39,701 bases of DNA from Nitrospinaceae bacterium (GCA_029261435.1 JAJDBI010000027.1:1-39701); one strand, 5' to 3'. Shown: positions 1 through 25,705, counted from the first letter of the stretch. Notes: generated by a model from the letters alone, not told the origin. Numbers and translations are program-made.

Positions 1-601
1 TCGCCATGAGAATGACCCGGCCTACCATCGTCTCCACCTGCTGCGTCAAGTGGTTGAGCACATAAAGTCCCTGGGCTTCGTCTTCATCACTTCCAGGCTG
101 AACTTTTTCATCAAGCCGAGCGCGCGTGATGAGGTCGATCACCATATGATGTTCAAATATTTCGATATTATCCTGAGCGTGAACCGCTTCAATGAGAGTG
201 CGCTCAATCTCCCATCCGGTCAGGTCGTGCGCATGCAGAATGCGGCGTTTGGAATGACCCCCTTCTTTTCCCAGGTCAAATCCAGCACCGCGAATGCGGT
301 CGAACTGGGCACCGAGTCCGATCAACTCCCGAATCCGTGCCGGACCTTCACGGCAGGCAATACGAACAAAATCTTCATGGCAGAGCCCGCGTCCGGTTTC
401 CATCGTGTCCTGTACATGCAGTTCAAACGAGTCGTCCTCCGCCATCACCGAGGCGATACCACCCTGAGCATATTTGGTCGCCGACTCCTCCAGCGCGTCC
501 TTGGTGATGATGCCAACAGAACCGAACTTGCAGACCTTAAGCGCAAAGGTCAGCCCCGCCACACCAGACCCGATTACAATGAAATCCTTATCAATAGCCA
601 T
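1..601 (-). CDS. nadB: L-aspartate oxidase, 5' portion (about 200 codons); the ORF runs off the left edge
   Basis: Reverse complement from ATG (601..599) reads MAIDKDFIVIGSGVAGLTFALKVCKFGSVGIITKDALEESATKYAQGGIASVMAEDDSFE ... DRIRGAGFDLGKEGGHSKRRILHAHDLTGWEIERTLIEAV. It has the FAD GxGxxG loop and the YAQGGIA and EGGHSxRRILHA motifs typical of NadB. It is absent from the ORF track only because it is open at the window edge. The listed + ORF 50..613 is its antisense shadow. Confidence 0.85.
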   Translation of the reverse strand, partial: MAIDKDFIVIGSGVAGLTFALKVCKFGSVGIITKDALEESATKYAQGGIASVMAEDDSFELHVQDTMETGRGLCHEDFVRIACREGPARIRELIGLGAQFDRIRGAGFDLGKEGGHSKRRILHAHDLTGWEIERTLIEAVHAQDNIEIFEHHMVIDLITRARLDEKVQPGSDEDEAQGLYVLNHLTQQVETMVGRVILMA

Positions 602-753
602 ACCACATTTTAACCAATTAGGCCTTTAATATCAATTAGATAATAATATCTCCCATAGGCCAGCTGAACAGAAAATTTCACCATAGGGATGTTCGTGTTA
701 AGCTATGGCGAGATAAATATGCTTCCCCCCATATTTAGGGAACAAAACCAACC

Positions 754-2160
754 ATGGCCGAACCATTAACTAAAAATGAAGTACTTGCCAAACTCGAAAC
801 TGGAGAATCGTTTAGAGGTATAGAAATTGGCGACGTTGATTTCAACGGTCACAGCTTTGAGAAGACACCAGATTTTTCAGGAGCAATTTTTAAGGGAGAC
901 GCTGATTTTGCTAATGCAACATTTTCAGATGGAGCGATGTTCATATCGACACAATTTCTTGGAAGAACAAGTTTTTGGGAGGCCATTTTTGATGGTAAGA
1001 AAGGTGCTGACTTTCGATCTGCTAAATTTTTATGCGAACAAGAAGTTAGCTTCGGTTGGTCACAGTTCTTGGGTGGAGCAAATCTTGACGGGGCAAACTT
1101 CGGAAGCGCTCAATTCGCCGCAGGGGTATCTTTTGGAGGAGCTGAGTTTCACGGTGATGGAAGAGCAAACTTTACTAATGTAAATTTCTATGACAAAGGT
1201 AGGGTTAATTTTAACGGTGTTGTATTCGGAGGAAATGTATGGACAAGCTTCTTTAAAACAAAATTCTCAAGTTCGCAGGGAACAAGCTTTAATAATACAA
1301 AATTTTTAAGCTCCGAAAGTACAAGTTTCAGCAAAGCACAATTTTTAGGACCTGGAATAACCAGCTTTAAAAACACAAGTTTTGAAAAAAACAATCCTGT
1401 GTCATTTAATAACCTAATAATAGATCCTCCCGGTAGTCTGGAGTTTATTGACGTCTCCTATTTAGGTGATGCACGTTTTTTATACACAGATCTAAAAAAA
1501 ATCAACTTCAAAAATGTTCGTTTTCGCCGAACTGAAAACTGGTTATTCAACCGAGATTATCTTGCGGATGAAGATAGGGGAAAGCACCTAAACACATATA
1601 TTCACAAAAACAAATATAACTATTACAGTCAGGTTGAGATTCTGTATCGCAAGCTCAGGGAAAATTTCGAGGGCCAACTTGATTTTCATCGCGCAGGTGA
1701 CTTCCATTACGGTGAGCTGGAAATGCGGCGCAAAACCAAAATGCTGGAGTGGCAAGAAAAAACCGTTTCAAAATACCTGCCCTTCTTAAAATATTTCAAC
1801 CTCACGCAATTCTACAAAATCGTTTCTGGTTACGGCGAAAAATGGGTGCAGGCGCTGGCAAGCTTTGTGGCTGTCTGGATAGTGTTTACGGGTCTTAACC
1901 TGTTCTGGGTTGAGCCGAAAGCTGCAGTGACAGAGGAACAACCCGCCCGGATGGAACAATGGGGGAATGACTCATTTCACAGGCTGGGTGGCTCTGTATT
2001 GTTCAGTTTCAAGGTTTTAACCCTGCAACGCTGGGGCGATGAATTTCAACTCACTGGCACTTCCTACATCCCCCGCATCTTCGTTGCCGTGCAACATTTG
2101 ATTGGTCCCACCATCATCGCCCTGATGCTGCTTGCAATTCGACGACAGTTTAGGCGATAA
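754..2160 (+). CDS. pentapeptide-repeat-like protein with a C-terminal two-helix membrane module
   Basis: ATG start. Residues ~28-228 are F-centred xxFxx units (VDFNG HSFEK, ADFAN ATFSD, and so on). The C-terminus has two hydrophobic helices, WVQALASFVAVWIVFTGLNLFWV and IFVAVQHLIGPTIIALMLLAI. The repeat part is visibly more AT-rich than its neighbours. Confidence 0.8.
   Translation: MAEPLTKNEVLAKLETGESFRGIEIGDVDFNGHSFEKTPDFSGAIFKGDADFANATFSDGAMFISTQFLGRTSFWEAIFDGKKGADFRSAKFLCEQEVSFGWSQFLGGANLDGANFGSAQFAAGVSFGGAEFHGDGRANFTNVNFYDKGRVNFNGVVFGGNVWTSFFKTKFSSSQGTSFNNTKFLSSESTSFSKAQFLGPGITSFKNTSFEKNNPVSFNNLIIDPPGSLEFIDVSYLGDARFLYTDLKKINFKNVRFRRTENWLFNRDYLADEDRGKHLNTYIHKNKYNYYSQVEILYRKLRENFEGQLDFHRAGDFHYGELEMRRKTKMLEWQEKTVSKYLPFLKYFNLTQFYKIVSGYGEKWVQALASFVAVWIVFTGLNLFWVEPKAAVTEEQPARMEQWGNDSFHRLGGSVLFSFKVLTLQRWGDEFQLTGTSYIPRIFVAVQHLIGPTIIALMLLAIRRQFRR
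1126..1437 (+). repeat. eight tandem degenerate 39-nt (13-codon) repeats inside the pentapeptide-like CDS
   Basis: Units are VSFGGAEFHGDGR / ANFTNVNFYDKGR / VNFNGVVFGGNVW / TSFFKTKFSSSQG / TSFNNTKFLSSES / TSFSKAQFLGPGI / TSFKNTSFEKNNP / VSFNNLIIDPPGS. The four units at 1243..1398 are also clearly similar at DNA level (acaagctt...). Confidence 0.8.
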
Positions 2161-2172
2161 ACACTATTGACA

Positions 2173-2197
2173 GTCATCCTGAGCCTGTCGAAGGATG
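2173..2197. repeat. left arm of a 25-bp imperfect inverted repeat flanking the GIY-YIG gene; itself a hairpin
   Basis: GTCATCCTGAGCCTGTCGAAGGATG. The internal stem is CATCCT/AGGATG with an 11-nt loop. It matches the reverse complement of 2525..2549 at 22 of 25 positions. Confidence 0.75.
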
Positions 2198-2230
2198 GGC
2201 CTAAATATAAAATTTCACTAACACTGGGTT

Positions 2231-2518
2231 ATGAGTTCATACTTTATATACATACTCAAGTGCCGGGATAACAGTTATTACACAGGCATAACCAACAATA
2301 TAGAGAAACGACTTTATGAACATCAACAAGGTTTAGTGAAAGGAAGCTATACGCATTCTCGCAGACCGTTTAAGCTGGTTTTTTCTGAAAGCTTCAGTAA
2401 GGCTCTTGATGCAATTGAACGAGAAAAACAAATCAAAGGTTGGTCTCGTAAGAAAAAGGAAGCATTAGTATCAGGAGATTTTCCGGGCCTGCAAAAGTTT
2501 TCAAGAAACAGACAATGA
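2231..2518 (+). CDS. small stand-alone GIY-YIG nuclease superfamily protein (UPF0213-like)
   Basis: MSSYFIYILKCRDNSYYTGITNNIEKRLYEHQQG carries the GIY-(spacer)-YIG-type motif pair (FIY...YTG), followed by a conserved R and the E(REKQIKGWSRKKK) tail typical of the family. ATG start. Confidence 0.85.
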   Translation: MSSYFIYILKCRDNSYYTGITNNIEKRLYEHQQGLVKGSYTHSRRPFKLVFSESFSKALDAIEREKQIKGWSRKKKEALVSGDFPGLQKFSRNRQ

Positions 2519-2524
2519 GATATT

Positions 2525-2549
2525 CACCCTTCGACAAGCTCAGGGTGAC
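2525..2549. repeat. right arm of the 25-bp inverted repeat flanking the GIY-YIG gene; itself a hairpin
   Basis: CACCCTTCGACAAGCTCAGGGTGAC. Its reverse complement is GTCACCCTGAGCTTGTCGAAGGGTG. The internal stem is CACCCT/AGGGTG. It sits between the convergent GIY-YIG and binding-protein genes. Confidence 0.75.
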
Positions 2550-2579
2550 GGTTTTGGCAGAAATGTGAACGATAACGAG

Positions 2580-3509
2580 CTATGGGAGTTTTAGCCCCGG
2601 CTCTAATGTGATGAGTCCTTCGACATACTGCTTGCCAAATTCCGGGAAGAGGTCCGGGTGGATGCAATGGGCGAGTATTTCCAGGGAGTCGAGAATGCGT
2701 GGGCCGGGGCGGTTGAAATAGGAGTTCCCATCTACCAGATAAACTCGGGTTCCTGATCGTGATTGCCAGTCTGGAATCTGCTTTTTCAGCAATTCCATTT
2801 CCTTCAATGTCTGGTCGAGTTTATAACCACAGGGTTTCACGATCACAACATCCGGGTTGATTTTGGCTAAGGTTTCTTGATCCACAACGGGTGCAGGTTT
2901 GCCGCTCTCGGCAATGCAAACCTGTCCCCCGGCAATGTCGATCATCTCCGGTAACCACATGCCTCCGACATAAATGGGGTCGATCCATTCTATGGTCAAA
3001 ACCTTCGGTTTCTTTTTTCCATAACCCACAAGGCGGCCACGCACATCCTGAACTCGCTGATCGACTTCTTCTAAAAACTCCTGTCCTTTTTGTTTCACTC
3101 CCAGCGTCTCGGCGGTGTTTAAAACATCGCACCAGATATCCTCCAGCATTTTGGGTCTGAGAGAAATAATTTTTGCGCCCACGAGTTCGCGGCAGGCTTC
3201 TTCAACCTGCGAAAATGAAACGGCACAGACATCGCATAAATCCTGAGTCACGATGAAATCAGGTTTCAAAGATTTCAATAACTCTACATCGAGGTCATAA
3301 ACTGAAACGGCGTTTTTCATCACCTCAAGAACTGATTTGTGAATGGCCAAGCTATCGAGCGATGGATTAACACGGGTGGAGGTGAGACGAGGAAGAGACC
3401 GCACGGTCTCGGGAAAATCACATTCATGCGACACGCCCACCAGGTTTTTCTCCAGCCCAAGTTTCGCCAGAATTTCAGTTGCAGAAGGGAGCAGGCTGAC
3501 GAGTCTCAT
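2580..3509 (-). CDS. periplasmic-binding-protein fold (BtuF / Fe-siderophore / cobalamin class) protein with no signal peptide
   Basis: MRLVSLLPSATEILAKLGLEKNLVGVSHECDFP is the characteristic N-terminal strand-helix (PSxTE) of class III substrate-binding proteins. ATG start. There is no hydrophobic leader. Confidence 0.75.
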   Translation of the reverse strand: MRLVSLLPSATEILAKLGLEKNLVGVSHECDFPETVRSLPRLTSTRVNPSLDSLAIHKSVLEVMKNAVSVYDLDVELLKSLKPDFIVTQDLCDVCAVSFSQVEEACRELVGAKIISLRPKMLEDIWCDVLNTAETLGVKQKGQEFLEEVDQRVQDVRGRLVGYGKKKPKVLTIEWIDPIYVGGMWLPEMIDIAGGQVCIAESGKPAPVVDQETLAKINPDVVIVKPCGYKLDQTLKEMELLKKQIPDWQSRSGTRVYLVDGNSYFNRPGPRILDSLEILAHCIHPDLFPEFGKQYVEGLITLEPGLKLP

Positions 3510-3665
3510 TGTTTAGCTCTCATGGGTTTGAAAAAAAATGTCACACCTCTATTGATAGTACCTGTTTTCAACCCAACAGGCGCATAAAAAAATTTTATTG
3601 AGTGGCTACCCGGTGCCAACCTGATACCCCTACAGAAAAAATGGGTTCAATGACAGCATTCAGCT

Positions 3666-6383
3666 TCAGTCGTCGATACGGGTCATTTTCGGGTTTATAG
3701 TTTCTATTAATTTCTGGTGTTTTTCCAGATCTACCAATGCACTTGGTGAGAAATAACGGAGGGCATGTTTTCTGATATCTGTTGCTAACTTTTTTGCCTT
3801 TTCTTTTTCTGGAGGTACCGGAACCTCTTTCTTCAGGAGAAGAGTCAATATTTCCTGATCGGACTTTGTGGCATTTGCTAAATATTTTTTGGATTCGGGA
3901 GACTCTGGATTCAAAAAGTAATTACGCAAGTCTAATCTCCTGCAAAGGGAGAAGCTTTTGGCACAATAAGCCGGGGGAAGCTGGATATCTTTTTTTTGTT
4001 CAACAAAAGCCTCCCACTGTTTCAATAGAGATACCTCGTTGACGATGAAAGGGTCCTTGTTTCCAACCTGGGCGACTGGAGCGTTGGCCCGAGTGAAAAA
4101 ATCTTTACCAGCCCAGTAGTCCAGTTTTGGGTTTTCCAATGTGTGCCACCCACCGCCTTCTGTGAACAATTCAATCGCCCTCCCTGAAATCGTTTCCAAT
4201 GCCAGAAAAGATTCTATATCAGTTGCGCCAAAATCCATGAGTGCCTGATTTTTGCCTTCCCGCGATAGACGCTGCGCCATGACTTTTAAACGCTCATTGG
4301 AAATGGGGGTCTTCGATCCCAAAATTCCGAAATCGGTTTCCTGAGTTTGAAACACATAGTAATGGGGAAACACGGTTTGAAAAGTGCTCATGATCAGCCT
4401 AACCGTATTGAGCGAAAGTGAGTAACCATGGAACCATTGAAAAAAAACCCCATTCATGGATAAACGATCACTGATCAACTGAAAGAATTCCTGAGTAAAT
4501 AAATTTGCGACCCCGAACATCCATGGATTACTGGGTTCACTGATGATGGTGTCATATTTTTTTGTTCCGTTTCTCAAGTGCCTGAAGGCATCTGTGATAA
4601 CTACTCTCGTTTTCGGATTTGATAAGGCATGGTAGTTAAAGGTTTCAAAAAGTTTTCCGGCCTCAATGACTACCGGGTTGATTTCTATCAGATCAATCTG
4701 GCGGACCTCCTTATATTGTCCAGCTACTCCAGCGGTAATCCCAGAGCCAAACCCGATAACACAAACATTTTCCGGATTCTCTGTGAGAAGTATTGGGATA
4801 TGACTGAGCAGTTGCATGGTAGCCAGATCGCCTGATGTATTGGCCTCGGCCTTTCCATTTATTAAAATAGAAAGATCCTGGGAGCCTGGAGTGCTAATCA
4901 CTGCTACTGTGGCGGCCGGACCATCCCTGTAAAACCATGACTCGTTTTTATTGATTGTGGTTTTGAATGCTTCAAATGTTGGAGGAGGTGCACCCCTGTC
5001 TCGAAAGGTGCCTATAGAGAACAAGTGGTTTTCCCAGGGAGATTGTCGGGATAGTATTGTTAGAAAAATAAAAAAAACTACCAGTAATCTGAGGCGAGAG
5101 GTGTTTCCTACTCGGTTCCAGGAAAACCCAAGTGATAATAGTCCTGAAAAGGCGACCATGTAGATGAGTAAAAGGAATACCTCATTCAGGTTACACCAAA
5201 GTAACAGATAATACCCTGCCAGCAAGGCTCCAGAGACGCAACCCAGTGTATTCAAGGCATAGAGCGTTCCCGTATTTGATCCCAGAGAATCTACAGAACG
5301 TTTTGCGAAGTTGAAACAAAGGGGTAAAGCGGCCCCACATAATAAAATGGGAATCAGCAGGGCTCCCGCAAATGCCAGGGAGATTGTGGCAAAGTAAGGT
5401 GAAAAGGCGTAAGGAGAATTCGAGAATACAGCTCGTATGGTCTGAGAATAATAAGGCCAGGTTTCTATACTATTGTAAAGAATCAGTAAAGATATACCTG
5501 TCAACCCAAGTAAATATCCAATAGCTTGAATGGATATTTTTTTGAAGGTACCAACCACCCAACCACCTAAAGCAATACAAAAAACAAATATTCCAACAAT
5601 GATGGAAAAAGTATAAGTGGAAGAACCGATGGACAGCCCCACCATTCGAATCAAAAGGGCTTCAAGCCCCAGGGTAACAAAGCCTGAAATAAAAACAATC
5701 ACCCAAAGCCATTTAATCGGAAACGCTTTTGGCTTTTCCTCTGGCAACGAAAGGTTTGTCAACTCCTTCTTTTCTAATTGTAGCGTCTCGTCCAAAAGAT
5801 AAAAAATGATACCGACGGACACGTTGATCGAGCCCATATAAAACAAGCTGACAGCAAGCCCAAATGTTGGCAGAAAGTAAAATCCTGCCAGAAAAGATCC
5901 CAACGCAGCTCCAAGAGTATTAAAAGAGTAAACCTGAGAATGGGTTCGAGTCGAAGATTTTAAATCCCTGCTTAAGGTCTGAGTCAACACTGGAATGGTA
6001 CCGCCCATTAGAATTGTAGGTGGACCAAGGAAAATCAGAGACACTCCAAGTTCCGCCAAAAACCCATCAATTTCAAAGTCGGAAACAGCGCGGAAAATGA
6101 CCGGAGAAAAAATAGCCCAAACACCAATCAATAGCTCTGTGATTCCATAAAGTTTAAAAAGACTGCGGGGGAATTTCTGGGTCAAATGGCCATAGATAAA
6201 ATAACCAATAGACATTCCTCCCAGAAAAACTGCCAGAATCATGGCTGTGGCCTGGGATTGGGAACCTAAAAGATAATTGAGATAACGATGCCAGGTGTTT
6301 TGAAAAATCAGGGCGGTAAAACCCGTAAAAAAAGTCAGGATGATCGAGATTAATTTTAAATGCGGGAACCCAAAACGTGACAT
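3666..6383 (-). CDS. polytopic membrane protein fused to a spermidine-synthase-like (class I SAM/dcSAM-dependent transferase) domain
   Basis: About 440 N-terminal residues form many hydrophobic helices. This is followed by VCVIGFGSGITAG...IDLIEINP...VVITDAF...YDTIISEPSNPW...LFTQEFF, which is colinear with the SpeE core. The track ORF starts at GTG 6386. The ATG at 6383 sits 7 nt after a GGAGG and is preferred. Confidence 0.8.
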   Translation of the reverse strand: MSRFGFPHLKLISIILTFFTGFTALIFQNTWHRYLNYLLGSQSQATAMILAVFLGGMSIGYFIYGHLTQKFPRSLFKLYGITELLIGVWAIFSPVIFRAVSDFEIDGFLAELGVSLIFLGPPTILMGGTIPVLTQTLSRDLKSSTRTHSQVYSFNTLGAALGSFLAGFYFLPTFGLAVSLFYMGSINVSVGIIFYLLDETLQLEKKELTNLSLPEEKPKAFPIKWLWVIVFISGFVTLGLEALLIRMVGLSIGSSTYTFSIIVGIFVFCIALGGWVVGTFKKISIQAIGYLLGLTGISLLILYNSIETWPYYSQTIRAVFSNSPYAFSPYFATISLAFAGALLIPILLCGAALPLCFNFAKRSVDSLGSNTGTLYALNTLGCVSGALLAGYYLLLWCNLNEVFLLLIYMVAFSGLLSLGFSWNRVGNTSRLRLLVVFFIFLTILSRQSPWENHLFSIGTFRDRGAPPPTFEAFKTTINKNESWFYRDGPAATVAVISTPGSQDLSILINGKAEANTSGDLATMQLLSHIPILLTENPENVCVIGFGSGITAGVAGQYKEVRQIDLIEINPVVIEAGKLFETFNYHALSNPKTRVVITDAFRHLRNGTKKYDTIISEPSNPWMFGVANLFTQEFFQLISDRLSMNGVFFQWFHGYSLSLNTVRLIMSTFQTVFPHYYVFQTQETDFGILGSKTPISNERLKVMAQRLSREGKNQALMDFGATDIESFLALETISGRAIELFTEGGGWHTLENPKLDYWAGKDFFTRANAPVAQVGNKDPFIVNEVSLLKQWEAFVEQKKDIQLPPAYCAKSFSLCRRLDLRNYFLNPESPESKKYLANATKSDQEILTLLLKKEVPVPPEKEKAKKLATDIRKHALRYFSPSALVDLEKHQKLIETINPKMTRIDD

Positions 6384-6459
6384 CACAAGCCCTCCAGAAT
6401 TTTCTTCAACTCAGGTTTTTCCGAAATTTCTATTGCCGGAGTGAGTATGCTGTCCCATT

Positions 6460-8763
6460 TCATAAAATTTTCCTTGCTGGCAGAAAAAACAATAACAACA
6501 ACAATAGTGACGCTACACCACTGATGATGACTCCTGTTTTTAATCCTATGGGTTCATATATGAACTCGATATGGTGGTTGCCTGGCTTCAAACGGACGCC
6601 TCGGTAAAAATAATCGGCACGATAGATGTGCCCGGCCTTGCCATCCACTTCCACCTTCCACCCGGGGAAATAGGTATCAAGCAGAACCAGAAACCCTTCT
6701 TCGTTCTGACTGGTCTCAAGACTCACCCGGTTTGGACTGTAATTGATTTTTTCAACCTTTCCGGAAAAGTTTTTTGCTTTTTTCATTTCAACCGACTTTG
6801 TCAACAGAACCTGCTGAAGCGGGTTGAACGCTGCATCGTAATAAATATTTAGCGTATTCTCTTTTGGCACCTGCGCCGAGTTTCCAACCAAAAAAGCACG
6901 CGGTAGAGCATCTTCAAACACGTCTACTTTCATCAATCCTCTTGGGTATTGATCTGAAGGCGGTTGCTCATAATCTCTTGTCACCCAATACTTCACATTG
7001 CTTCGCTGTAAAATTCTTTTCTTCGTTGAGATATCAGCCGGATGAAACGATTTAAACCAAGGCATACTGTCTGCCATTACCATGCCGGAATATCCGTCGG
7101 CATAAGCTACCCCATAGATCGCCCCCATGTTTTGAGAGACTCGGTCACGTGCAGCCAATTGAACACTCAACTTATTATAGAGAGAATGCTTCGATGAAGT
7201 ACCTGATTTCTGCAACTCAGCTTCAGTAGAACCAGAAAAATTATTAGTTTGTGCAGTGCTCTTCAATAGTCTACCGCTATAAGTGCGGAATGAATCTGCG
7301 GTTCCCTCAAGACGTTTTGCCAAGATCGAAGGTTTTGAATAAAATTCATTGTCTATCATTGGTGCCAGTGTTGAGTTTTTCCCCATCAAGTCCATCACCA
7401 ACAATAACAAGAGAAGTGAAACAAATGCATTACGGTTTATTTTTTTTAAATTCAGAGCAAAAATTCCGGTCCCCAGGAGCATCAAAATCATCAGGCTTTC
7501 AAGTCCGGCTCGGTTGGAATAATTTCCAAAAATCCCAGCTACCATCATCCCAGTGACCAGAAGAGCGATCAGGAGTTTTTTCACTTCAGAGTTTTTTTGC
7601 GTGACTGCAAGGACAAACCTGTCCATAGCCCAGGCCGATAGAAATACCAATGCATAGGCACACAAGAAAAAAAACTTCTCCGGGAACCGGAACATGTTGA
7701 ACACCGGAACCCATTCATGAAATAGGAAATAAAGCGGATTAAATCTGCCCAGAGCAAAAAACACTCCCGCGCCGAAAACCACCAACCAAAAACGAGTCTC
7801 TTTTTGTTCCCTTCCGACCAGAAGGCTACCAAGCAAAAAAAACAAAGGAACAATGCCCATATATAAGCTATGCATAAAATAATTCATAGGGCCTCCGTCC
7901 CCTTCGAGAAATTGCGTGAAATTCTCAGGCAAAAACAGGTCGAGCAAAGCACTGGGAGTTAACGACCAAAGTGTGCTATCGATATAATTCACTCCATCAC
8001 CGCGCACTAACTCTTTAAGCAAGTAATAAGTCGGCACCCATTGCAAAGCAGAAAGAACCAGCGCAAACACAACCAGCACAAACACCGCCAGGGTTTTTTG
8101 TTTGAACCCCTTCAACTGTTCTTCATCTTTAGTCAGGTAAAGGGAATGGGCATAAATCAGGAGTACAGAAAAAATTGCGCTTTCCGGTCCACCGCCCAGC
8201 ACCTGGAGCGCCAGTAAAATCACGGCACCACAAAAATGATTCATTCTTCCGTCGCGCATGAACTTTTGCCACATCATCATAAGTAACGGGAACCAAACGG
8301 CAGACTGAAAATGATTATAAATCGCGGCCAACGACAAAAAATATCCACCCAAAAGGGCAGTAAGCGCTGCTGCCAGGGATGCGGGAGTTGACCTGCCCCA
8401 ATACCGGCTCAGGGCATAAACCGATCCCATCAGTATCAGATGATGAAATAGAAAGTAATAGCTAAAGGCAAAGTTAAAATCGTTCAATAAAAATATTACA
8501 GAAGGAGGATAAAACACCCCCGGATGCATCATGGACATAAATGGCATACCCTGGAATAAGTTTGGATACCAGTACGGCCATTCCCCCACTGCCCATGCCT
8601 GAGCAATAGAAAGTTTCATAGGATATGCAAAATGCTTGATATCGCGGAAGAAGAAAGTGTTCCCTTCGAACAAGACTGGGTAAAAAAGCAGGGTAAAAAC
8701 AAACAGGAGGAAACAGGCCGGTAGGAGGGACATCCCGAAGCGGTATAGAGAATTATTATTCAT
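6460..8763 (-). CDS. YfhO-like polytopic membrane protein (putative GT-C-type glycosyltransferase), paralog 2
   Basis: 767 aa with many TM helices. N-terminal FEGNTFFFRDIKHFAYP and C-terminal EGFLVLLDTYFPGWKVEVDGK...YRADYFYRGVRLKPGNHHIEFIYEP plus a final TM, as in the YfhO family. Its start overlaps the upstream stop by 8 nt (ATGAATAA). Confidence 0.65.
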   Translation of the reverse strand: MNNNSLYRFGMSLLPACFLLFVFTLLFYPVLFEGNTFFFRDIKHFAYPMKLSIAQAWAVGEWPYWYPNLFQGMPFMSMMHPGVFYPPSVIFLLNDFNFAFSYYFLFHHLILMGSVYALSRYWGRSTPASLAAALTALLGGYFLSLAAIYNHFQSAVWFPLLMMMWQKFMRDGRMNHFCGAVILLALQVLGGGPESAIFSVLLIYAHSLYLTKDEEQLKGFKQKTLAVFVLVVFALVLSALQWVPTYYLLKELVRGDGVNYIDSTLWSLTPSALLDLFLPENFTQFLEGDGGPMNYFMHSLYMGIVPLFFLLGSLLVGREQKETRFWLVVFGAGVFFALGRFNPLYFLFHEWVPVFNMFRFPEKFFFLCAYALVFLSAWAMDRFVLAVTQKNSEVKKLLIALLVTGMMVAGIFGNYSNRAGLESLMILMLLGTGIFALNLKKINRNAFVSLLLLLLVMDLMGKNSTLAPMIDNEFYSKPSILAKRLEGTADSFRTYSGRLLKSTAQTNNFSGSTEAELQKSGTSSKHSLYNKLSVQLAARDRVSQNMGAIYGVAYADGYSGMVMADSMPWFKSFHPADISTKKRILQRSNVKYWVTRDYEQPPSDQYPRGLMKVDVFEDALPRAFLVGNSAQVPKENTLNIYYDAAFNPLQQVLLTKSVEMKKAKNFSGKVEKINYSPNRVSLETSQNEEGFLVLLDTYFPGWKVEVDGKAGHIYRADYFYRGVRLKPGNHHIEFIYEPIGLKTGVIISGVASLLLLLLFFLPARKIL

Positions 8764-11056
8764 TTATACCAATCCTTTTGACATTTTTAAAATGAAGAAA
8801 TATCAAACCAGTTAAAAGAATAATCAGAGTAAAAACGCTGACTTTCAATCCTGCTTCAAATCCTTCCGGAATATAAGAGAATTTGATTAAATGCCTACCG
8901 GCATCCAGTTTGACCCCCCTGAAAAAATAATTTGCACGATGAATTTGGTGCGGCTTGCCGTCGACCTCCACCTTCCAGCCAGGGAAATAAGTATCCAGCA
9001 GAACCAGAAACCCTTCTCCATTCTGCTCCGTTGTCAATTCAACCTTGTTGAGTGAGTAAATGATTTTATTCACCTTCCCGAAAAAATCACTCCGTGTTTG
9101 TGTTTGCACTTCTTCGCCTAATAAAACTTTCTGTAGAGGGTCAAACGAATCACTATAATAAGTATTCAACAGGTGAGGTTCCCGACCAGACTGAGACTGC
9201 CCCACTATGAAGGCTCGCGGCAGAGTATCTTCAAAAACCTCGACCGGCTTCAAACCCATAGAGGCAAGATCCCTGCCTTCATCTGTCAACCAGTATTTCA
9301 CATTACTTCGTTCTAATATGCGGATTCGTTTTTCCGGCGGGGACTTGATGAAAAGTTCTGTCCACAGCCACCCATTGTTGAGTTCCAAACCAGTAAGCCC
9401 ATCTGTATAACTCAATCCATAAATCATTCCCAGGTTCGGACGAAGGAGGTTTTTCAGCGCAAGATGCGAAGCCATCAGATTCTTTCTTTTAGGAAATTGA
9501 GTGGCCGTAGGAATGTTTTCTTCATCGAGCAGTCTTCCTCCATAAACCCGATAGAGCTTTTGTGAATCTTCTAGTTGAGCAATGAGCTCGGGTTTTTTTT
9601 CGTAAAAAGATCGGTCAACCATGGGCATTAATGAAACATTTCGAGCCCACAATTCCAGAATAAGAAGAATTACAGCAAGAACCCTGAACACAGCCATACC
9701 CCGCGTTGCTGTTAAAGATATTGCCAGAAGCATTGCAAAGATAATCAGGGTGACCAATCCCGTTAGCCATTCTCTTTCCGGTTCCATCACCGCAACCCAC
9801 AGCAGTAAAGCCAGCAGGGCAAACGCCGTTAGCAGAGAAGAACGCTTATTTTTTTCTACGGAACCAACCCTGAAAAAATCCAACCCCAACCCTGTCAAAA
9901 AAACGAGAGCGAACGCGGACAGAAAAAAGAATTTTTCCGGGTAACGGAAAAACCTCAATGCTGGAACCCCATCGTAAAACCAGGAATAAAGTGGATTAAA
10001 TCTTCCCGCGGCGAAAAAGATTCCCATGAAGAATAGCCCTGCCCAAAACCAGAATGCCCGGCTTTTAATTCCTGATAACAATCCGAAAAACAAGATTCCC
10101 AAAGGAACTAAACCCATGAAACAACTTTGCAAAAAATATTGTTTGGAAAATTTGTCCGAGGTCATGAAATTAAAATAATTTTCAGGCAGGATGATTGTCG
10201 ACAAGGCTGAAGGTGACAAGGACATTGCAGAATTATGTTCAAAACTCACACCGGCAGAACGCACAGACTCCTCAACCAAAGCACTGGTAGGTATAAGTTG
10301 AATAGCAGATAGCCCTAAACTTACAAACAAAACCCCTGCGAACACTCCTGTCCGCACTAGAGAAGAATTTCGAGTAACTTCTCCGGGTACCACAAATACC
10401 GCAAAGCCCCACAAGATTCCTGTAATAAAAATACAGGTTTCTGAACTACCCCCCAGAATTGAAAATGTATAAAATAAAACTGTGCACAGAAAATCAGCAA
10501 TCCTTTTTTTCAACAGCAAGCGATTAAAACTCAAGAGAATCAGCGGAAACCAGACTGCAGTTTGGAAATGATTGTATATCGATGCCAGGGAAAGGAAGTA
10601 CCCACCCAGAAGAGCTGTCACCGCAGAACCCAACGAAGCCTCCGGAGAAAGTCCCCAGAACCGAGACAACCCATAGACCGAAAAAGTCAGGACGAAATGG
10701 TGAAACAAATAAAAATAATTGAAGGCATCACCAAAATTATTTATCAGGAAAATAAGGTTTGGCGGGTAAAAAACTCCGGGGTGGTATAAAGAGAAGAAAG
10801 GAACGCCTCCTGAAATTTGCGAGTTCCAGAATGGCAGAGCCCCTTCCTGCAGGCTTTTCCAGATGAAATGCTTGAAGGGATAGCCGAAGTGCAACATATC
10901 CCTGAAGAAGAAGGTTTTACCTTCAAATAAAATCGGGAAAAACAAAGCAAAAAAGAGAAACACCAGCACTAAAACAGCAACCAGACTTTTATTCAGCCGG
11001 CAAATCCAAGCAGGCATTGCGAAAAGAAAATATGGTGTAGGAACCTGTGGACCCAT
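8756..11056 (-). CDS. YfhO-like polytopic membrane protein (putative GT-C-type glycosyltransferase), paralog 1
   Basis: 766 aa, colinear with 6460..8763 along its whole length (FEGKTFFFRDMLHFGYP ... EGFLVLLDTYFPGWKVEVDGK ... FRGVKLDAGRHLIKFSYIP). ATG start preceded by GAAGGA. Confidence 0.65.
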   Translation of the reverse strand: MGPQVPTPYFLFAMPAWICRLNKSLVAVLVLVFLFFALFFPILFEGKTFFFRDMLHFGYPFKHFIWKSLQEGALPFWNSQISGGVPFFSLYHPGVFYPPNLIFLINNFGDAFNYFYLFHHFVLTFSVYGLSRFWGLSPEASLGSAVTALLGGYFLSLASIYNHFQTAVWFPLILLSFNRLLLKKRIADFLCTVLFYTFSILGGSSETCIFITGILWGFAVFVVPGEVTRNSSLVRTGVFAGVLFVSLGLSAIQLIPTSALVEESVRSAGVSFEHNSAMSLSPSALSTIILPENYFNFMTSDKFSKQYFLQSCFMGLVPLGILFFGLLSGIKSRAFWFWAGLFFMGIFFAAGRFNPLYSWFYDGVPALRFFRYPEKFFFLSAFALVFLTGLGLDFFRVGSVEKNKRSSLLTAFALLALLLWVAVMEPEREWLTGLVTLIIFAMLLAISLTATRGMAVFRVLAVILLILELWARNVSLMPMVDRSFYEKKPELIAQLEDSQKLYRVYGGRLLDEENIPTATQFPKRKNLMASHLALKNLLRPNLGMIYGLSYTDGLTGLELNNGWLWTELFIKSPPEKRIRILERSNVKYWLTDEGRDLASMGLKPVEVFEDTLPRAFIVGQSQSGREPHLLNTYYSDSFDPLQKVLLGEEVQTQTRSDFFGKVNKIIYSLNKVELTTEQNGEGFLVLLDTYFPGWKVEVDGKPHQIHRANYFFRGVKLDAGRHLIKFSYIPEGFEAGLKVSVFTLIILLTGLIFLHFKNVKRIGINE

Positions 11057-11228
11057 AGTCCTTCAGCCTTTGAGGTATTTTTTTATTTTCAATATCAATC
11101 CCATAGAAAGAAATAGAAACTTCGATCTGAATATCGTCTCGAAAAAATCTGGAACAAGGATCCCATCAAACAATAGTTAAAAAGTATTATCCCAGTCTTT
11201 GAATGGGGAGTTATCCAGATGACCTCCA

Positions 11229-11272
11229 AAGAAAAAATCCCCACCCTCCGTCCAGCAGACGGGGAGTGGGGA
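11229..11272 (-). terminator. intrinsic (rho-independent) terminator just downstream of the pilin gene
   Basis: On the minus strand: UCCCCACUCCCCGUC-UGCUG-GACGGAGGGUGGGGA followed by UUUUUUCUU. The 15-bp stem has 13 Watson-Crick pairs, 1 GU and 1 mismatch. It begins 19 nt after the TAG stop. Confidence 0.8.
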
Positions 11273-11290
11273 ATATTTGTCACAAAAAAA

Positions 11291-11677
11291 CTACGGAGTG
11301 ATAGCACCATTGCTATCTATGGAGTAAACCGTAGACGAGGCATCATCAGTATGCTTCGTTGTTGCTGCAAAACCAGCTTCAGTCTTAGTACCAGCGGTAA
11401 TAGTAATTTTTGCTGATGTGGTATATCCATAAGTCGCGTCATCAACAGCGGCAGAATCACAAGCAGCCGTCGGTCCCTTATCTGCCCAGTAAGCCTTACA
11501 AGCCAGAAATATGTTATGCAGATGCGATTTTGCGTCAGATTGATAAGCTCTGTTCTTATAAGCACTGAATTGAGGAATCGCAATGGCAGCCAAAATACCG
11601 ATAATAGCGATAACGATCAACAATTCAATAAGAGTAAAACCCTTTTCTCCTTGAACCTTTCTAAACCTGGATAACAT
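11291..11677 (-). CDS. pilA: type IV pilin (prepilin with N-terminal cleavage/methylation motif)
   Basis: [13 protein letters not shown]|[24 protein letters not shown] has G at -1, F at +1 and E at +5, plus a hydrophobic alpha1-N helix. The ATG at 11677 lies 8 nt after a GGAGG. The track ORF is extended to a TTG at 11704, which I consider unlikely. Confidence 0.9.
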
Positions 11678-11746
11678 TTCCCATTCCTCCGTTATGGTTG
11701 ACAAAACAAGCTTTCAATAAACTATTTCTCCAATTGCTCAATATAA

Positions 11747-11762
11747 AGCAATCCTCATGCCT
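11747..11762 (-). promoter_or_regulatory. candidate sigma54 (-24/-12) promoter for the pilin gene
   Basis: The minus strand reads AGGCATGAGGATTGCT, against the consensus TGGCAC-N5-TTGCW. The GG and GC are at the exact canonical spacing, about 70 nt upstream of the ATG. Confidence 0.55.
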
Positions 11763-11884: not shown

Positions 11885-11991
11885 TTTCACTACCAAGTTT
11901 TGTCATTTAATGAGGTTTTTTGAAAAAATGGTCCCCATAAACTTCATTATCTCTTGCCATATTTAGAGGTTTATGAAACGATTTGCTGTAT

Positions 11992-12684
11992 ATGAATAAC
12001 GAATTAAAACGAGTGGGTTTATTGGGAGGAACGTTTGATCCTGTCCATGACGGGCACCTGGATCTTGCGACAAAAACAGCGCAACTATTTGATTTAAAAG
12101 AAGTTTTATTCATTCCCGTCAGCCAGTCGCCGCATAAGCTTGGTGATCAGCCCACCTCTTCGCGCCATCGAATTGCCATGCTTGAACTGGCTCTTGAACA
12201 GAAAACCAGGTTTTCGATAGAGTTATTTGAGGTAGAGAAAGGTGGTGTCTCCTACACCATTGAGACCTTGTCCCGACTAAAGGAAAGACACCCTAGTTGG
12301 GAGCTTTATTTGATTCTTGGAGCAGATGCCTTTTTGCTGATGGATACTTGGAAAAGTTTTACCGAAATAATAAAACTCTGCCACATACTGGTGGGCACAC
12401 GACCAGGCATCAAGCTAGAGGTTCCAGATAAGTTGAGCCAAACCCTAGGACTCAAAAAAACTCCACGGGATAATGATGATTTAATACTGCCCATGACCTT
12501 GAATACCACCACCGGAAAAACCATACGCTTATATCAAATTCCAACTCCCAATATTTCATCCAGAGAAATCCGGCAAAAGGTGCAGGCAGGAAAAGAAATC
12601 AAAAATTTGTTGCCCCCTGCAGTTGATCATTATATTATGCACCACCGATTATACCGGGCTGAGTCCCCTCCAATTAAGGATTAA
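11992..12684 (+). CDS. nadD: nicotinate-nucleotide adenylyltransferase
   Basis: VGLLGGTFDPVHDGHLDLA is the (H/T)xGH nucleotidyltransferase motif, and ISSREIRQKV is the C-terminal ISSTxxR-type motif. The track ORF begins at TTG 11983. The first ATG is at 11992. Confidence 0.85.
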   Translation: MNNELKRVGLLGGTFDPVHDGHLDLATKTAQLFDLKEVLFIPVSQSPHKLGDQPTSSRHRIAMLELALEQKTRFSIELFEVEKGGVSYTIETLSRLKERHPSWELYLILGADAFLLMDTWKSFTEIIKLCHILVGTRPGIKLEVPDKLSQTLGLKKTPRDNDDLILPMTLNTTTGKTIRLYQIPTPNISSREIRQKVQAGKEIKNLLPPAVDHYIMHHRLYRAESPPIKD

Positions 12685-21639: not shown

Positions 21640-23544
21640 TCATTTTGTACTAATTATGGTGGGAGTGATAAATACCATGAGCTCAGAGATCAAATCGGCA
21701 TCATTATAACTTTTAAATAAAAGTCCCAATAGGGGTATTTTAGAGAAAAATGGGACCGCCTCTGTGTTCTCACTTTTGCTGCTTTTATAGATACCACCTA
21801 GAACAGTGGTGTCTCCATTCCCCACTAAAACTTCCGTATGCGTTTCACTGGTCGTTATGACTGGGACCGATTGAATTCTTGTTCCACTGTCTTTATTATT
21901 AGTGGTATCGATGGTCAAATAAATATTCTCATCAGAGGTTACATGAGGAGTGACCCTGAGACTGAGTTCTGCATCGATAAACTGGATGGAGTTACCCTCG
22001 GCTGAATTAACCTGATAAGGTATAGTTTCTCCGCTTTCAATCCTGGCTTCCTTATTATCTGCGACTATGACTCTGGGGGAAGCGAGCACTCTTGCTTTAT
22101 TTTCCGTCTCCAAAGCTTCCAGTTGGATGTCCAAACGCATCCCTGGGATCAAATCTGCCATCAAAAGACCGATTCCGGCATTACTTCCAGCGCTGGATTT
22201 TGTGGAGTCCGCTAAATCCACCAGGAAATTGGAAGTCGAGTTGGTCGTTGATGAAATTAATGCAGAACTGGGATTGCTGATAATAGCATCACCCGTAAAA
22301 CCCCATTGTACTCCCAATTGCTGGCTGAAATTTTTTGTGATATCAACAAGCTTTGCTTCAATCAAAACCTGGGGTGTGGGAACATCCAAAACCCTCACGG
22401 TCGCAAGCATGTCATCCACATGCTCACGTAGATCATTCAAAATTAATGTATTAGTACGAGTGTCCACAGTGATTTGAGCCTCTGGGCGGGCACTCTTTAA
22501 GGCAGTAAGGCTCGTTGAAAGTTCGGTAATATCTGCATTGTCAATACGAACCACTTCAGTGACCAGGTCTTGTGCATTGCGCTCATTGATTCTGTCGCTC
22601 ACAGCGCGGGCTTTTTCAGAAACTCTAGCACTGTCCTCAGCCTGAAGAACTGCTTTGCTAACAATGCGGACAATATTGGTCCCGAAACATTCCCGTCCCA
22701 GACTACTGTTAGTGAGAATAATTTCCATGGCCTCATTCCAGGCCACATCCATCATTCTGATATTTACGGAACCCCCTACTTCAGGGGAGAGAATGACATT
22801 GAATCCACTGATCTCCGCAAATATTCTAAACAGGTTGCGGACATCAGCATTTTGAAAATCCAGGGAAACCGCTTCTTTCTTTCCATATAACATAGGATAA
22901 CAAGAATCTTTAGCGACATCATACTCATCCATCTTTTCTTTATCTATGGTGGCTGACACATCAGTTTCCTTAGCAACCTCCTTCACAGGCTGTGGCTGAG
23001 CCACTTCCTGCTTCACTTCCTTCTCTGAAGATTGTAGATGAATAGTGAGTATATTTTTCCCCGGTTTTTTAATCTCATAATCTGCTGATTGATTGAGAAC
23101 GATTTCCAGGCGCAATACACCCGCTTCTTTAAAGTGGATAGGGCGAATGAAATTCACAATTCCTTTATCAACCTGAACGCGGCTTGTCAGATTACCTTGA
23201 TTCATTTTCGGAAAATCCAAAACCAGCCTGAGCGGATTCAGAAGTTTAAAAGCAGTGTATTGAACAGGTCGATTAGATTCGATAGAAACAATAGAGCCTT
23301 GTCCATCTTCTATTGTATTGAGGGAGACAATTTCTCCTAAGGACATATTGCTTGAGTCCTCGCTCTGGTTTTGAGCCAATAACATTAATGGAACTGTATT
23401 TTTTCTCTCACGAGCTATATCCGGCAAAGGCTCCTGGTGATAGTCTCCCAGAAGGACCGCGGAATGTGCAGGCCAGGCAGTAAGAAATAACAAAAGAAAA
23501 GTTATCATTGAGTAATGGGATTTTTTGAACATTTGTTTTCTCAT
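21640..23544 (-). CDS. pilQ: type IV pilus secretin PilQ
   Basis: Signal peptide. One AMIN-like domain (VQYTAFKLLNPLRLVLDFP). C-terminal secretin core (VLASPRVIVADNKEARIESGETIPY ... TTVLGGIYKSSKSENTEAVPFFSKIPLLGLLFK). Confidence 0.9.
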   Translation of the reverse strand: MRKQMFKKSHYSMITFLLLFLTAWPAHSAVLLGDYHQEPLPDIARERKNTVPLMLLAQNQSEDSSNMSLGEIVSLNTIEDGQGSIVSIESNRPVQYTAFKLLNPLRLVLDFPKMNQGNLTSRVQVDKGIVNFIRPIHFKEAGVLRLEIVLNQSADYEIKKPGKNILTIHLQSSEKEVKQEVAQPQPVKEVAKETDVSATIDKEKMDEYDVAKDSCYPMLYGKKEAVSLDFQNADVRNLFRIFAEISGFNVILSPEVGGSVNIRMMDVAWNEAMEIILTNSSLGRECFGTNIVRIVSKAVLQAEDSARVSEKARAVSDRINERNAQDLVTEVVRIDNADITELSTSLTALKSARPEAQITVDTRTNTLILNDLREHVDDMLATVRVLDVPTPQVLIEAKLVDITKNFSQQLGVQWGFTGDAIISNPSSALISSTTNSTSNFLVDLADSTKSSAGSNAGIGLLMADLIPGMRLDIQLEALETENKARVLASPRVIVADNKEARIESGETIPYQVNSAEGNSIQFIDAELSLRVTPHVTSDENIYLTIDTTNNKDSGTRIQSVPVITTSETHTEVLVGNGDTTVLGGIYKSSKSENTEAVPFFSKIPLLGLLFKSYNDADLISELMVFITPTIISTK

Positions 23545-25025
23545 GAGTTCGTATTACCCTCGCTAGGTGTGCTCTCTGAAAATTGGATAATTTTTTGGTT
23601 CTTCAGGATATTACCCAGGTAATCCCTGAACTCTTCAATCACGATTACCTGATCCCTCTCTATTTCTTCCACATACCCGAAGAAAGGACCAATCCTATCG
23701 CCTTTTTTCACCGCATATCCGGTAGTTTCGATCTCAAACATAGCCACCGCTTCCATTTTTTTCTTGATAATTCCCGTCATTCGAAGAGAGTTATAATCAA
23801 CCTGCAGTGGCGACTCATCCATTTGGATTTCAGAAGACCTCTCCAGCGCATAGCGATAATCCTCTAAAGCCTGAGCATATTCATCATCTTCCAGATCTTC
23901 TAATTTTTCCTGATCATTGAATAAGAACTCAAAATATTTCAATTTCTTATAAAGCTTTGGATACCGATCTTCAATTTCCACAAAAACTGGCAAGGCAACT
24001 GGCGGAATATCTTTTAACTCGCCGCCAAACAATCGGGCATCAGACATACTCCGCATGTCTTCAGCGAGTTCAATCAGCCCCTTATTATTCACCAGAGGTC
24101 GGAAAGGATCTCGCTTTCCAATCAACATATAGCGTTGCCCAGGTGGAACCATGCCTTTCAACAAAGGATACTCTGGTCCGCCGGAGTCAATTTCATTTAA
24201 CAATTCGACCTGAATCAGACTCGCTTTATATAAAGCTTTCTTAATCCCTTTCTTAAAACCTTTTAACACCGTCTGGTTGAACCACTGACCGGACTCGGAA
24301 TTTAAAAACTGGGCATACTCCTCAATATCTTTGTCTTTAAGATTTCTATAACTAAAAAGCAGACTGCGCAAAATAACTTCTCGCATGGGTTCAGTAATAT
24401 TTTTCTCAAATTTTCTCAGCTCTCTACTCAGCGTCTTCCCTTCAAAATTTTTATTGAAGGGCTGCATCAATTTGACGTATCCCAAAAAAAGTTTTTTTCC
24501 CGCCTCCGCCACATGAGAGGAGCGCTCAATACTCTCTACCAGCCTGATTCGCTTCTCATCTGGAGGAGAGCTCAATAATTTTTTCACAAATACTTCTATC
24601 GCTAACCGACTATCTGGATCATTCGCCTTACTCTCAAGCTTTAATATTTTTTTTCCCAATGCGCTTCGATACCATTGAACCGCCGAGCGAACATATTGTG
24701 GTTTGTAATCTTTATTAAACGGTTGCCTCAACTCATAGTAAAATTTGCCAGAGGAATAAGCTTGATGCATTATTCTTCGGGCAAATTCACCCTGCCCTGG
24801 TGCCAAAGCATCCTCATTAATATTGCTCGAAATTTGAACAATAGATTCGATATTGCTTAAAGTATCTCTAAGCCCACTGTATCTAAACAAGGTATTGAGC
24901 TTATAATTTCGAGAACGCAGGTCTTCCTGAACAGAAGGAGTCATCGCGGAAGCAAAAACAGGCTGGACCCCTGCCAAAACTATCCATAGGGTAAATAAAA
25001 TTTTCATACAAAACCTATTTCTCAT
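23541..25025 (-). CDS. extended PilP-like protein (494 aa) in the pilP position
   Basis: ATGA overlap with pilQ. Cleavable signal peptide (no lipobox). A DPFRP motif at residues 306-310. The C-terminal LQVDYNSLRMTGIIKKKMEAVAMFEIETTGYAVKKGDRIGPFFGYVEEIERDQVIVIEE fits the PilP beta-domain pattern. The N-terminal ~300 aa is unassigned. Confidence 0.6.
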   Translation of the reverse strand: MRNRFCMKILFTLWIVLAGVQPVFASAMTPSVQEDLRSRNYKLNTLFRYSGLRDTLSNIESIVQISSNINEDALAPGQGEFARRIMHQAYSSGKFYYELRQPFNKDYKPQYVRSAVQWYRSALGKKILKLESKANDPDSRLAIEVFVKKLLSSPPDEKRIRLVESIERSSHVAEAGKKLFLGYVKLMQPFNKNFEGKTLSRELRKFEKNITEPMREVILRSLLFSYRNLKDKDIEEYAQFLNSESGQWFNQTVLKGFKKGIKKALYKASLIQVELLNEIDSGGPEYPLLKGMVPPGQRYMLIGKRDPFRPLVNNKGLIELAEDMRSMSDARLFGGELKDIPPVALPVFVEIEDRYPKLYKKLKYFEFLFNDQEKLEDLEDDEYAQALEDYRYALERSSEIQMDESPLQVDYNSLRMTGIIKKKMEAVAMFEIETTGYAVKKGDRIGPFFGYVEEIERDQVIVIEEFRDYLGNILKNQKIIQFSESTPSEGNTNS

Positions 25026-25051
25026 CTTTAAATATCATCCTCAGAAAGACC

Positions 25052-25696: not shown

Positions 25697-25705
25697 AGTA
25701 TTTGA

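Follow-up and report, generated by a model that had tools for sequence, protein, structure and literature searches.

The question raised by the DNA described here is what two predicted membrane glycosyltransferases do when their genes lie directly behind a pilin gene. The stretch is a 39,701-nt contig of a Nitrospinota metagenome-assembled genome (GCA_029261435.1), referred to as the window below, and coordinates count from its first letter. On its minus strand, a sigma54-type promoter is followed by a type IVa pilin gene, a strong terminator, the genes of two glycosyltransferases of the YfhO family with a C-type fold (GT-C), YfhO-1 and YfhO-2, and the gene of a protein in which a membrane domain resembling the major facilitator superfamily (MFS) is fused to a SpeE-like domain. 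A preliminary description of this DNA had given coordinates for the pilin, both YfhO proteins and the SpeE fusion, all of which hold, and had proposed that the genes form an array that could modify the pilin or another envelope polymer. That proposal finds support for the YfhO pair, whose adjacency to the pilin is conserved across Nitrospinota, and none for the SpeE fusion as a member. We lean, with some caution, towards the view that the locus is a glycosylation island, variable in content but conserved in Nitrospinota beside the gene of the major type IVa pilin, and that it serves O-glycosylation of the pilin from polyprenyl-phosphate sugars.

The conservation of the arrangement was surveyed in one genome per GTDB species, scanned with a YfhO alignment, and each locus was mapped for pilins, YfhO, glycosyltransferases of family 2 (GT2), TMEM260-like proteins, the Peripla_BP_2 protein (PBP2), NadB, FtsK and NadD. 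The YfhO homologs of the window proteins with a named source were from Nitrospinota. A single conserved locus was found: divergently oriented dksA-rsfS-nadD, one or two pilin genes with a terminator, an optional TMEM260-like GT-C, an optional GT2, the YfhO copies, an optional Peripla_BP_2 gene and finally nadB-ftsK. Among loci with readable upstream DNA, a pilin gene lies directly upstream of the GT-C cluster and on the same strand in 24 distinct Nitrospinota loci besides the window, and the arrays of these 24 loci hold one to four YfhO copies. The comparison of neighbourhoods that the preliminary description had suggested as a check therefore came out in favour of the YfhO genes as neighbours on the 3' side of the pilin. 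Twelve other loci, including one with five YfhO copies (L030), could not be scored for the pilin because their upstream DNA is cut off. The adjacency holds down to 33-40% YfhO identity, despite heavy gene turnover in the island; between pilA and PBP2 or nadB, the YfhO copy number varies, and a TMEM260-like gene, a GT2 and a SpeE fusion may each be present or absent. The adjacency has outlasted a turnover that adds or removes everything else. In the literature searched, we found no paper linking Nitrospina, pilin and YfhO or DUF2723, and none describing a pilin-YfhO island.

What else occupies this slot in the relatives bears on the type of reaction. The first gene after pilA is often that of a TMEM260-like GT-C with C-terminal tetratricopeptide repeats (TPR; PF11028, 63-104 bits), and it is followed by a GT2 resembling dolichol-phosphate mannose synthase (DPMS) and ArnC. 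At least 14 relatives have a GT2 gene in their island. As DPMS and ArnC are the closest solved relatives of these GT2 proteins, the latter are polyprenyl-phosphate glycosyltransferases. The presence of both the TMEM260-like GT-C and the GT2 in the same slot strengthens the interpretation of the island as a glycosylation module that uses lipid-linked donors. When the pilin-TMEM260-like adjacency was looked for outside the phylum, the 120 best homologs of the TMEM260-like protein listed, which reach down to 36% identity, had Nitrospinota as their only named sources. We also noticed a gene for a DegT/DnrJ/EryC1-type sugar aminotransferase in L035 (15086..16267) and L038 (15096..16277). It lies after uvrC, approximately 3 kb downstream of the pilin-YfhO pair, and is possibly a gene of a donor-sugar pathway.

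The two enzymes of the window are encoded on the minus strand at 8756..11056 (YfhO-1, 766 aa) and 6460..8763 (YfhO-2, 767 aa) and are 42-43% identical. Both lie well above the PF09586 (YfhO) cutoff of 28.5 bits, with 79.9 bits for YfhO-1 and 72.3 bits for YfhO-2. Pfam returned YfhO alone for both, which argues that they are not of the Wzy_C/TfpO type. A sequence search of the PDB with YfhO-1 gave nothing at E <= 1. An AlphaFold2 (AF2) model of YfhO-2, built from a 30-sequence alignment (pLDDT 83.9, pTM 0.86), consists of a polytopic helical domain, a beta-rich domain at residues ~590-736 and a last helix at 741-760. In a fold search of the PDB, the best matches of this model were AftD, ArnT, STT3, PglB, Pmt4 and AftA, each with a probability of 1.00 and all of them GT-C enzymes. 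The earlier assignment of the 766/767-aa proteins to YfhO-family GT-C enzymes is thus confirmed, by family score for both and by fold for the YfhO-2 model. All 69 invariant columns of a 30-sequence alignment (A1) are retained in YfhO-1 and YfhO-2. These include Asp41, found in the motif FFFRD just after the first transmembrane (TM) helix and invariant across the 30 sequences, both paralogs among them. Taking into account that these positions are kept, both paralogs look active. The Asp41 loop would face the periplasm. In the protein database, the contig is represented with 100% identity by its YfhO-1 (P0185) and its SpeE fusion (P0001), but no such hit was returned for YfhO-2. Its open reading frame is intact in the window, and it may have remained uncalled as a gene in the source annotation.

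The candidate acceptor is encoded at 11291..11677 (minus strand), with the ribosome-binding site GGAGG 8 nt upstream of the start. The gene product is a 128-aa prepilin with a textbook 13-residue leader that ends in Gly and is followed by FTLIELLIV, with Phe at +1 and Glu at +5; the mature protein has 115 residues. It scored 36.9 bits against N_methyl (cutoff 21.2), and its best NCBIfam match was PilA_Myxo, the Myxococcus-type PilA. The leader, Phe+1, Glu+5, the hydrophobic N-terminal helix, the head with its two Cys residues and the assembly genes pilMNOPQ (21640..27516, minus strand), which the preliminary description had missed, all agree with a major type IVa pilin. Ser and Thr account for 31% of pilin residues 54-115, compared with 11.9% in 25 other proteins of the window (binomial p = 7e-5), in agreement with the earlier statement that the C-terminal half is rich in these residues. 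The island pilins all have 111-117 residues in the mature form, one Cys pair and a Ser+Thr content of 23-41% from mature residue 51 to the C-terminus. The Ser/Thr richness of the head is compatible with O-glycosylation and is no proof of it.

Two further observations concern the pilins. The mature pilin (11291..11641, minus strand) carries the aromatic residues F1, F24, Y27, Y32, Y50 and W51, positions used to call putative conductive 'e-pilins', and Nitrospinae pilins have been flagged as putative e-pilins in a preprint (bioRxiv 10.1101/668343). Heavy glycosylation of the pilin would bear on this idea. In addition, two tandem, diverged pilin genes precede the GT-C cluster in L029, L031, L034, L035, L038, L044, L047, L052 and L070, and in these pairs a strong terminator is found after the second gene only.

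As for transcription, the sigma54-like promoter noted in the preliminary description was found at 11747..11762 (minus strand; AGGCATGAGGATTGCT, AGGCATG-N4-TTGCT). It displays the GG-N10-GC spacing of sigma54 promoters, and the motif recurs upstream of the pilin in 20 related loci at an equal distance, ~115 nt before codon 1 of the mature pilin. The intrinsic terminator after the pilin gene (11229..11272, minus strand) consists of a 15-pair, G+C-rich stem (-26.7 kcal/mol, z = -3.0) and a U-run, and nearly all relatives have conserved a terminator 3' of their last pilin gene; the earlier caution that the downstream genes may be transcribed separately was justified. YfhO-1 starts 234 nt after the pilin stop on the same strand, the YfhO-2 start overlaps the YfhO-1 stop by 8 nt, and 76 nt separate YfhO-2 from the SpeE fusion. 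The island is bounded downstream by the Peripla_BP_2 gene (2580..3509, minus strand; PF01497, 63.4 bits), which comes after the last YfhO gene in most relatives. Its upstream boundary is the divergent nadD (11983..12684, plus strand) with rsfS and dksA, identified with Pfam and kept in this arrangement in relatives.

The island also bears traces of its own past. Between the stop codon of the SpeE fusion and the Peripla_BP_2 gene, tblastn revealed a YfhO relic (3518..3646, minus strand), a pseudogene fragment of a 3' gene end that is absent from the preliminary description. It is 49% identical to the C-terminus of YfhO-2 and, over 48 aa, 60% identical to the C-termini of the PBP2-adjacent YfhO genes in L085 and L021; it is preceded by a stop codon, and its last TM helix is truncated. 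A second relic was found in L085 (1648..1776), where a mid-gene YfhO-1 fragment with in-frame stops lies shortly before the SpeE gene. The presence of these relics beside the SpeE fusion in both islands indicates recent insertion or recombination. When 66 YfhO copies were placed in a neighbour-joining tree, lineage-specific expansions became apparent, with YfhO-1 grouping with L021 and YfhO-2 with L085, L001 and L009. The YfhO-1 ortholog (~71% identity) is the sole YfhO of L021, the closest relative of the window, whose layout is pilin, YfhO-1 and PBP2 and nothing else. Orthologs of YfhO-2 with 70-74% identity are present in L001, L009 and L085. The flanks of the window are closest to L021 (RsfS 99%, PBP2 93%), whereas the pilin head is closer to L001 (74%) than to L021 (61%), and YfhO-2 likewise (70% vs 44%). 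It seems, then, that the pilin allele and YfhO-2 have a common history apart from the flanks, which hints that the two may have arrived together.

The remaining gene of the cluster (3666..6383, minus strand) encodes a 905-aa protein with an MFS-like domain of 13 predicted TM helices, a SpeE-fold domain and a helical C-terminal domain. The earlier identification as a SpeE-like membrane fusion was correct, as the protein exceeds the cutoffs of both PF01564 (Spermine_synth, 71.9 bits, cutoff 22.9) and NF037959 ('fused MFS/spermidine synthase', 110 bits, cutoff 40). Its AF2 model (pLDDT 89.3) contains a complete SpeE fold, with target-normalised TM-scores of 0.65-0.76 to solved spermidine and thermospermine synthases, and the acidic residues that bind ribose and adenine (E567, D598) are invariant in the family. 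These features would fit a membrane-anchored polyamine aminopropyltransferase, that is, a housekeeping spermidine synthase located here by chance, but we consider this unlikely. Against the SpeE equivalogs the protein scored 84-147 bits, far under every cutoff (250-472). The GGGDG motif is replaced throughout the family by G-[FLYW]-G-[TS]-G (G-F-G-S-G in the window), with Ser or Thr at the Asp position in all 41 aligned members, and the Asp that selects decarboxylated S-adenosylmethionine (AdoMet) has therefore been lost. The catalytic Tyr is replaced by Thr, and VDSSDP by SEPSNP as part of an invariant S-E-P-S-N-P-W motif; the replacements occur in 39-41 of the 41 family members. Since the residues for aminopropyl transfer are replaced and those for the cofactor are kept, the fusion is probably an active enzyme, and the conserved SEPSNPW together with the loss of the Asp indicates that its reaction is not polyamine synthesis. 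According to hydropathy and a consistent positive-inside pattern, the SpeE-like domain would lie outside the membrane. This prediction conflicts with the invariant AdoMet-type residues (GxGxG, E567, D598), which argue for a cytoplasmic location. These observations concern residues 1-445 and 480-700, and a Cys pair (807/814) is conserved in 59-76% of the members.

Does this protein act together with the YfhO enzymes? One version of the earlier proposal takes the pilin, the two YfhO proteins and the SpeE fusion as a dedicated three-enzyme system, in which the SpeE-like domain would add an aminopropyl or methyl group to the pilin or its glycan. Two genomes, those of the window and of L085, have the fusion within the island (68% identity), and in the window the gene appears to be co-transcribed with YfhO-2, as the 76-nt gap holds its own ribosome-binding site and no terminator was seen there. 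Such a system would also be in line with the strict conservation of SEPSNPW and of the cofactor-binding residues, and with the predicted position of the domain. The wider comparison nevertheless makes it very improbable. We found no second YfhO-YfhO-SpeE trio among the Nitrospinota loci and SpeE-fusion homologs surveyed. In L085, the only other island with a fusion, the order is pilin, SpeE, YfhO-2 ortholog and PBP2; L021 has no fusion, and homologs of 50% identity (P0003, P0008) lie in unrelated neighbourhoods without pilin or YfhO. The wider family comprises at least 600 metagenomic matches to the hallmark motifs. Among the 80 of its loci analysed for neighbours, none had a YfhO, GT2 or TMEM260 neighbour, and no neighbour was recurrent, the best neighbour cluster occurring in 6 of 75 loci. 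Pilin-like genes were present near the fusion in 4 of the 80 loci, against a roughly estimated ~2-3% by chance, and this enrichment is not convincing. The two islands do not have their genes in the same order, and a YfhO relic is present in both, which is what a recent insertion should leave behind; the fusion is best explained as a lineage-specific newcomer and not as a conserved partner. Its insertion would have displaced part of a YfhO gene. The protein belongs to a widespread, usually stand-alone family that lost the aminopropyl-specific residues; a literature search revealed no paper on this fused MFS/SpeE family.

The more serious alternative concerns the acceptor of the YfhO enzymes. 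The array might act on lipopolysaccharide or another envelope polymer, or on many periplasmic and outer-membrane proteins in a general O-glycosylation, with the adjacency to pilA being an inherited gene order. We regard this as possible, though the less probable account. Several observations speak for it or weigh against pilin glycosylation. The conserved, strong terminator separates pilA from the enzymes, so that the link is one of adjacency and an operon is not demonstrated; no sigma70-like promoter was predicted in 11057..11290 by a crude scan, which cannot separate read-through from a promoter of the enzymes' own. All cases share one syntenic context (nadD ... nadB-ftsK), and they consequently represent one retained evolutionary association, not many independent ones. 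Eleven Nitrospinota loci lack an adjacent pilin, ten of which are lone YfhO paralogs at other genome positions, and the complete genome CP070799 has TPR-GT2-YfhO at nadB without a pilin. An adjacent pilin is likewise missing in some 33 relatives at greater distance, which belong to Verrucomicrobiota, Acidobacteriota, Chloroflexota and other phyla. The YfhO proteins characterised first modify teichoic acids, and the known protein acceptors of YfhO-type enzymes are Ser/Thr-rich disordered tails, whereas the head of the pilin forms a small, folded domain that contains a disulfide pair. The window has neither a donor synthase nor a flippase nor a TMEM260-like gene. The co-divergence of pilin head and YfhO-2 was not significant in a partial Mantel test controlling for the flanks (r = 0.21, p = 0.08, n = 13). 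On the other side, the adjacency has been kept over deep divergence amid repeated gain and loss between pilA and PBP2. The first gene after pilA in many relatives encodes a TfpW-like GT-C with TPR, which is the architecture of a protein-specific O-glycosyltransferase family, and the donor lineage of the pilin head is also that of YfhO-2 and not that of the flanks.

If the island does glycosylate the pilin, the following mechanism can be proposed. The donor would be made at the cytoplasmic face by a DPMS/ArnC-like GT2. The preliminary description had noted that a polyprenyl-phosphate sugar synthase is missing, and indeed no GT2 of this kind is encoded within the 39.7-kb window, which is a part of the genome; the gene would lie outside it. 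The YfhO enzymes would reside in the inner membrane, with the Asp41 catalytic loop and the large C-terminal beta-sandwich domain directed to the periplasm. There they would move monosaccharides from polyprenyl-phosphate donors to Ser/Thr residues of the pilin head, or to a sugar already present on them, before or during pilus assembly. Expansion, contraction and recombination of the paralog array might then lend variety to the surface of the pilus, for instance as a protection from pilus-specific phages or from grazers. A bolder version would make this island of YfhO and TMEM260-type GT-C enzymes a fast-evolving, hitherto undescribed system of pilin modification and the first case of YfhO-type protein O-glycosylation in a diderm and on a type IV pilus, and would add, in the lineage of the window, the SpeE fusion as a periplasm-facing alkyl (methyl, aminopropyl or aminocarboxypropyl) transferase, whose MFS-like domain carries the AdoMet-type donor across the membrane for a non-sugar decoration of the pilin or glycan. 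We give this combination little credence.

Some other features of the window were also noted. A second variable spot, the interval 596..2579, lies between the Peripla_BP_2 gene and nadB. In the window, it contains genes for a pentapeptide-repeat protein (754..2160) and a small GIY-YIG nuclease (2231..2518), and in relatives it ranges from almost nothing to ~2 kb of other DNA. A further GT-C, a PMT_2/ArnT-like protein of 549 aa (34812..36461, plus strand; 33.1 bits, cutoff 26.1), is encoded directly after a GH3 (NagZ-like) gene (33729..34808, plus strand) and has no relation to the pilin island.

In the ocean, nitrite is oxidised mainly by Nitrospinota, and to our knowledge, almost nothing is known of their cell surface. 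If the pilin is glycosylated by this island, YfhO-type O-glycosylation of proteins would reach beyond Gram-positive cocci to diderms and type IV pili. The slot would represent a second, independent variable accessory slot behind pilA, after that of TfpW/TfpO in Pseudomonas aeruginosa, and the changing copy number (one to five paralogs) would suggest a strong diversifying pressure, for example from pilus-specific phages or grazers, on the pilus surface in the open ocean. The locus also provides a testable way into two large and so far uncharacterised families, namely the DUF2723/TMEM260-like GT-C proteins of bacteria and the fused MFS/SpeE proteins.

Comparison with known systems places the components as follows. 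The SpeE fusion resembles NF037959 proteins in combining an MFS-like membrane domain with a SpeE fold within its 905 residues, but its location in a pilin island is atypical for the family. Human TMEM260 is a protein-specific O-mannosyltransferase (PMC10214176). In many relatives, its DUF2723 family (PF11028) is represented by a TPR-bearing gene directly behind pilA; that gene is absent from the window, however, and the bacterial members are uncharacterised. YfhO-family enzymes glycosylate teichoic acids, as in CsbB-YfhO, the system for lipoteichoic acid glycosylation in Bacillus subtilis. The window proteins belong to the same Pfam family, share the predicted architecture of a chain that crosses the membrane many times and carries a large extracytoplasmic domain between its last two TM helices, and are paired with a GT2 in the relatives. 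As Nitrospinota are not known to have teichoic acids, the acceptor must differ from that of CsbB-YfhO.

Closer to protein glycosylation are the streptococcal systems. The YfhO-family proteins PgtC2 and PgfM1, which act together with GtrB or PgfS, attach O-linked sugars to protein regions that are extracytoplasmic and rich in Ser/Thr, and in Streptococcus mutans the Pgf system (PgfS-PgfM1-PgfE-PgfM2) employs two YfhO-type GT-C enzymes and a GT-A enzyme for protein O-glycosylation. The preliminary description had held that two GT-C enzymes are not a described system; Pgf is one, and the statement survives in the narrower sense that such a pair is not known for pilins or diderms. Islands of the L006 type share with Pgf the combination of a GT2 and two YfhO genes. 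The window proteins, in contrast, scored 24-37 bits against NF047590 and NF047589 (cutoffs 1400-1500), over the C-terminal 60-75 residues only, and are not orthologs of PgfM1 or PgfM2. The window contains neither a GT2 nor an epimerase, the host is a diderm, and the candidate acceptor is a folded pilin head, unlike the disordered tail modified by Pgf or PgtC2.

The nearest parallel in gene arrangement is found in P. aeruginosa. In its group IV, TfpW is a GT-C with a periplasmic TPR domain, a pilin arabinosyltransferase whose gene lies directly after pilA; it uses a polyprenyl-phosphate sugar, the pathway genes of which are located elsewhere in the genome. The Nitrospinota island shares with TfpW and TfpO a polytopic glycosyltransferase, predicted to face the periplasm, encoded immediately 3' of the major pilin gene, and a variable slot for accessory genes behind pilA. 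In relatives of the window, a gene for a GT-C with C-terminal TPR occupies the position of TfpW. The enzymes of the window differ in their assignment to the YfhO family (PF09586), and not to TfpW or the Wzy_C-type TfpO, in forming arrays of one to five paralogs, and in their occurrence in the phylum Nitrospinota. The locus is a variant of the known pilin-accessory glycosyltransferase loci represented by TfpW/TfpO, built from the YfhO and TMEM260-like families, which have not been described for pilins or diderms.

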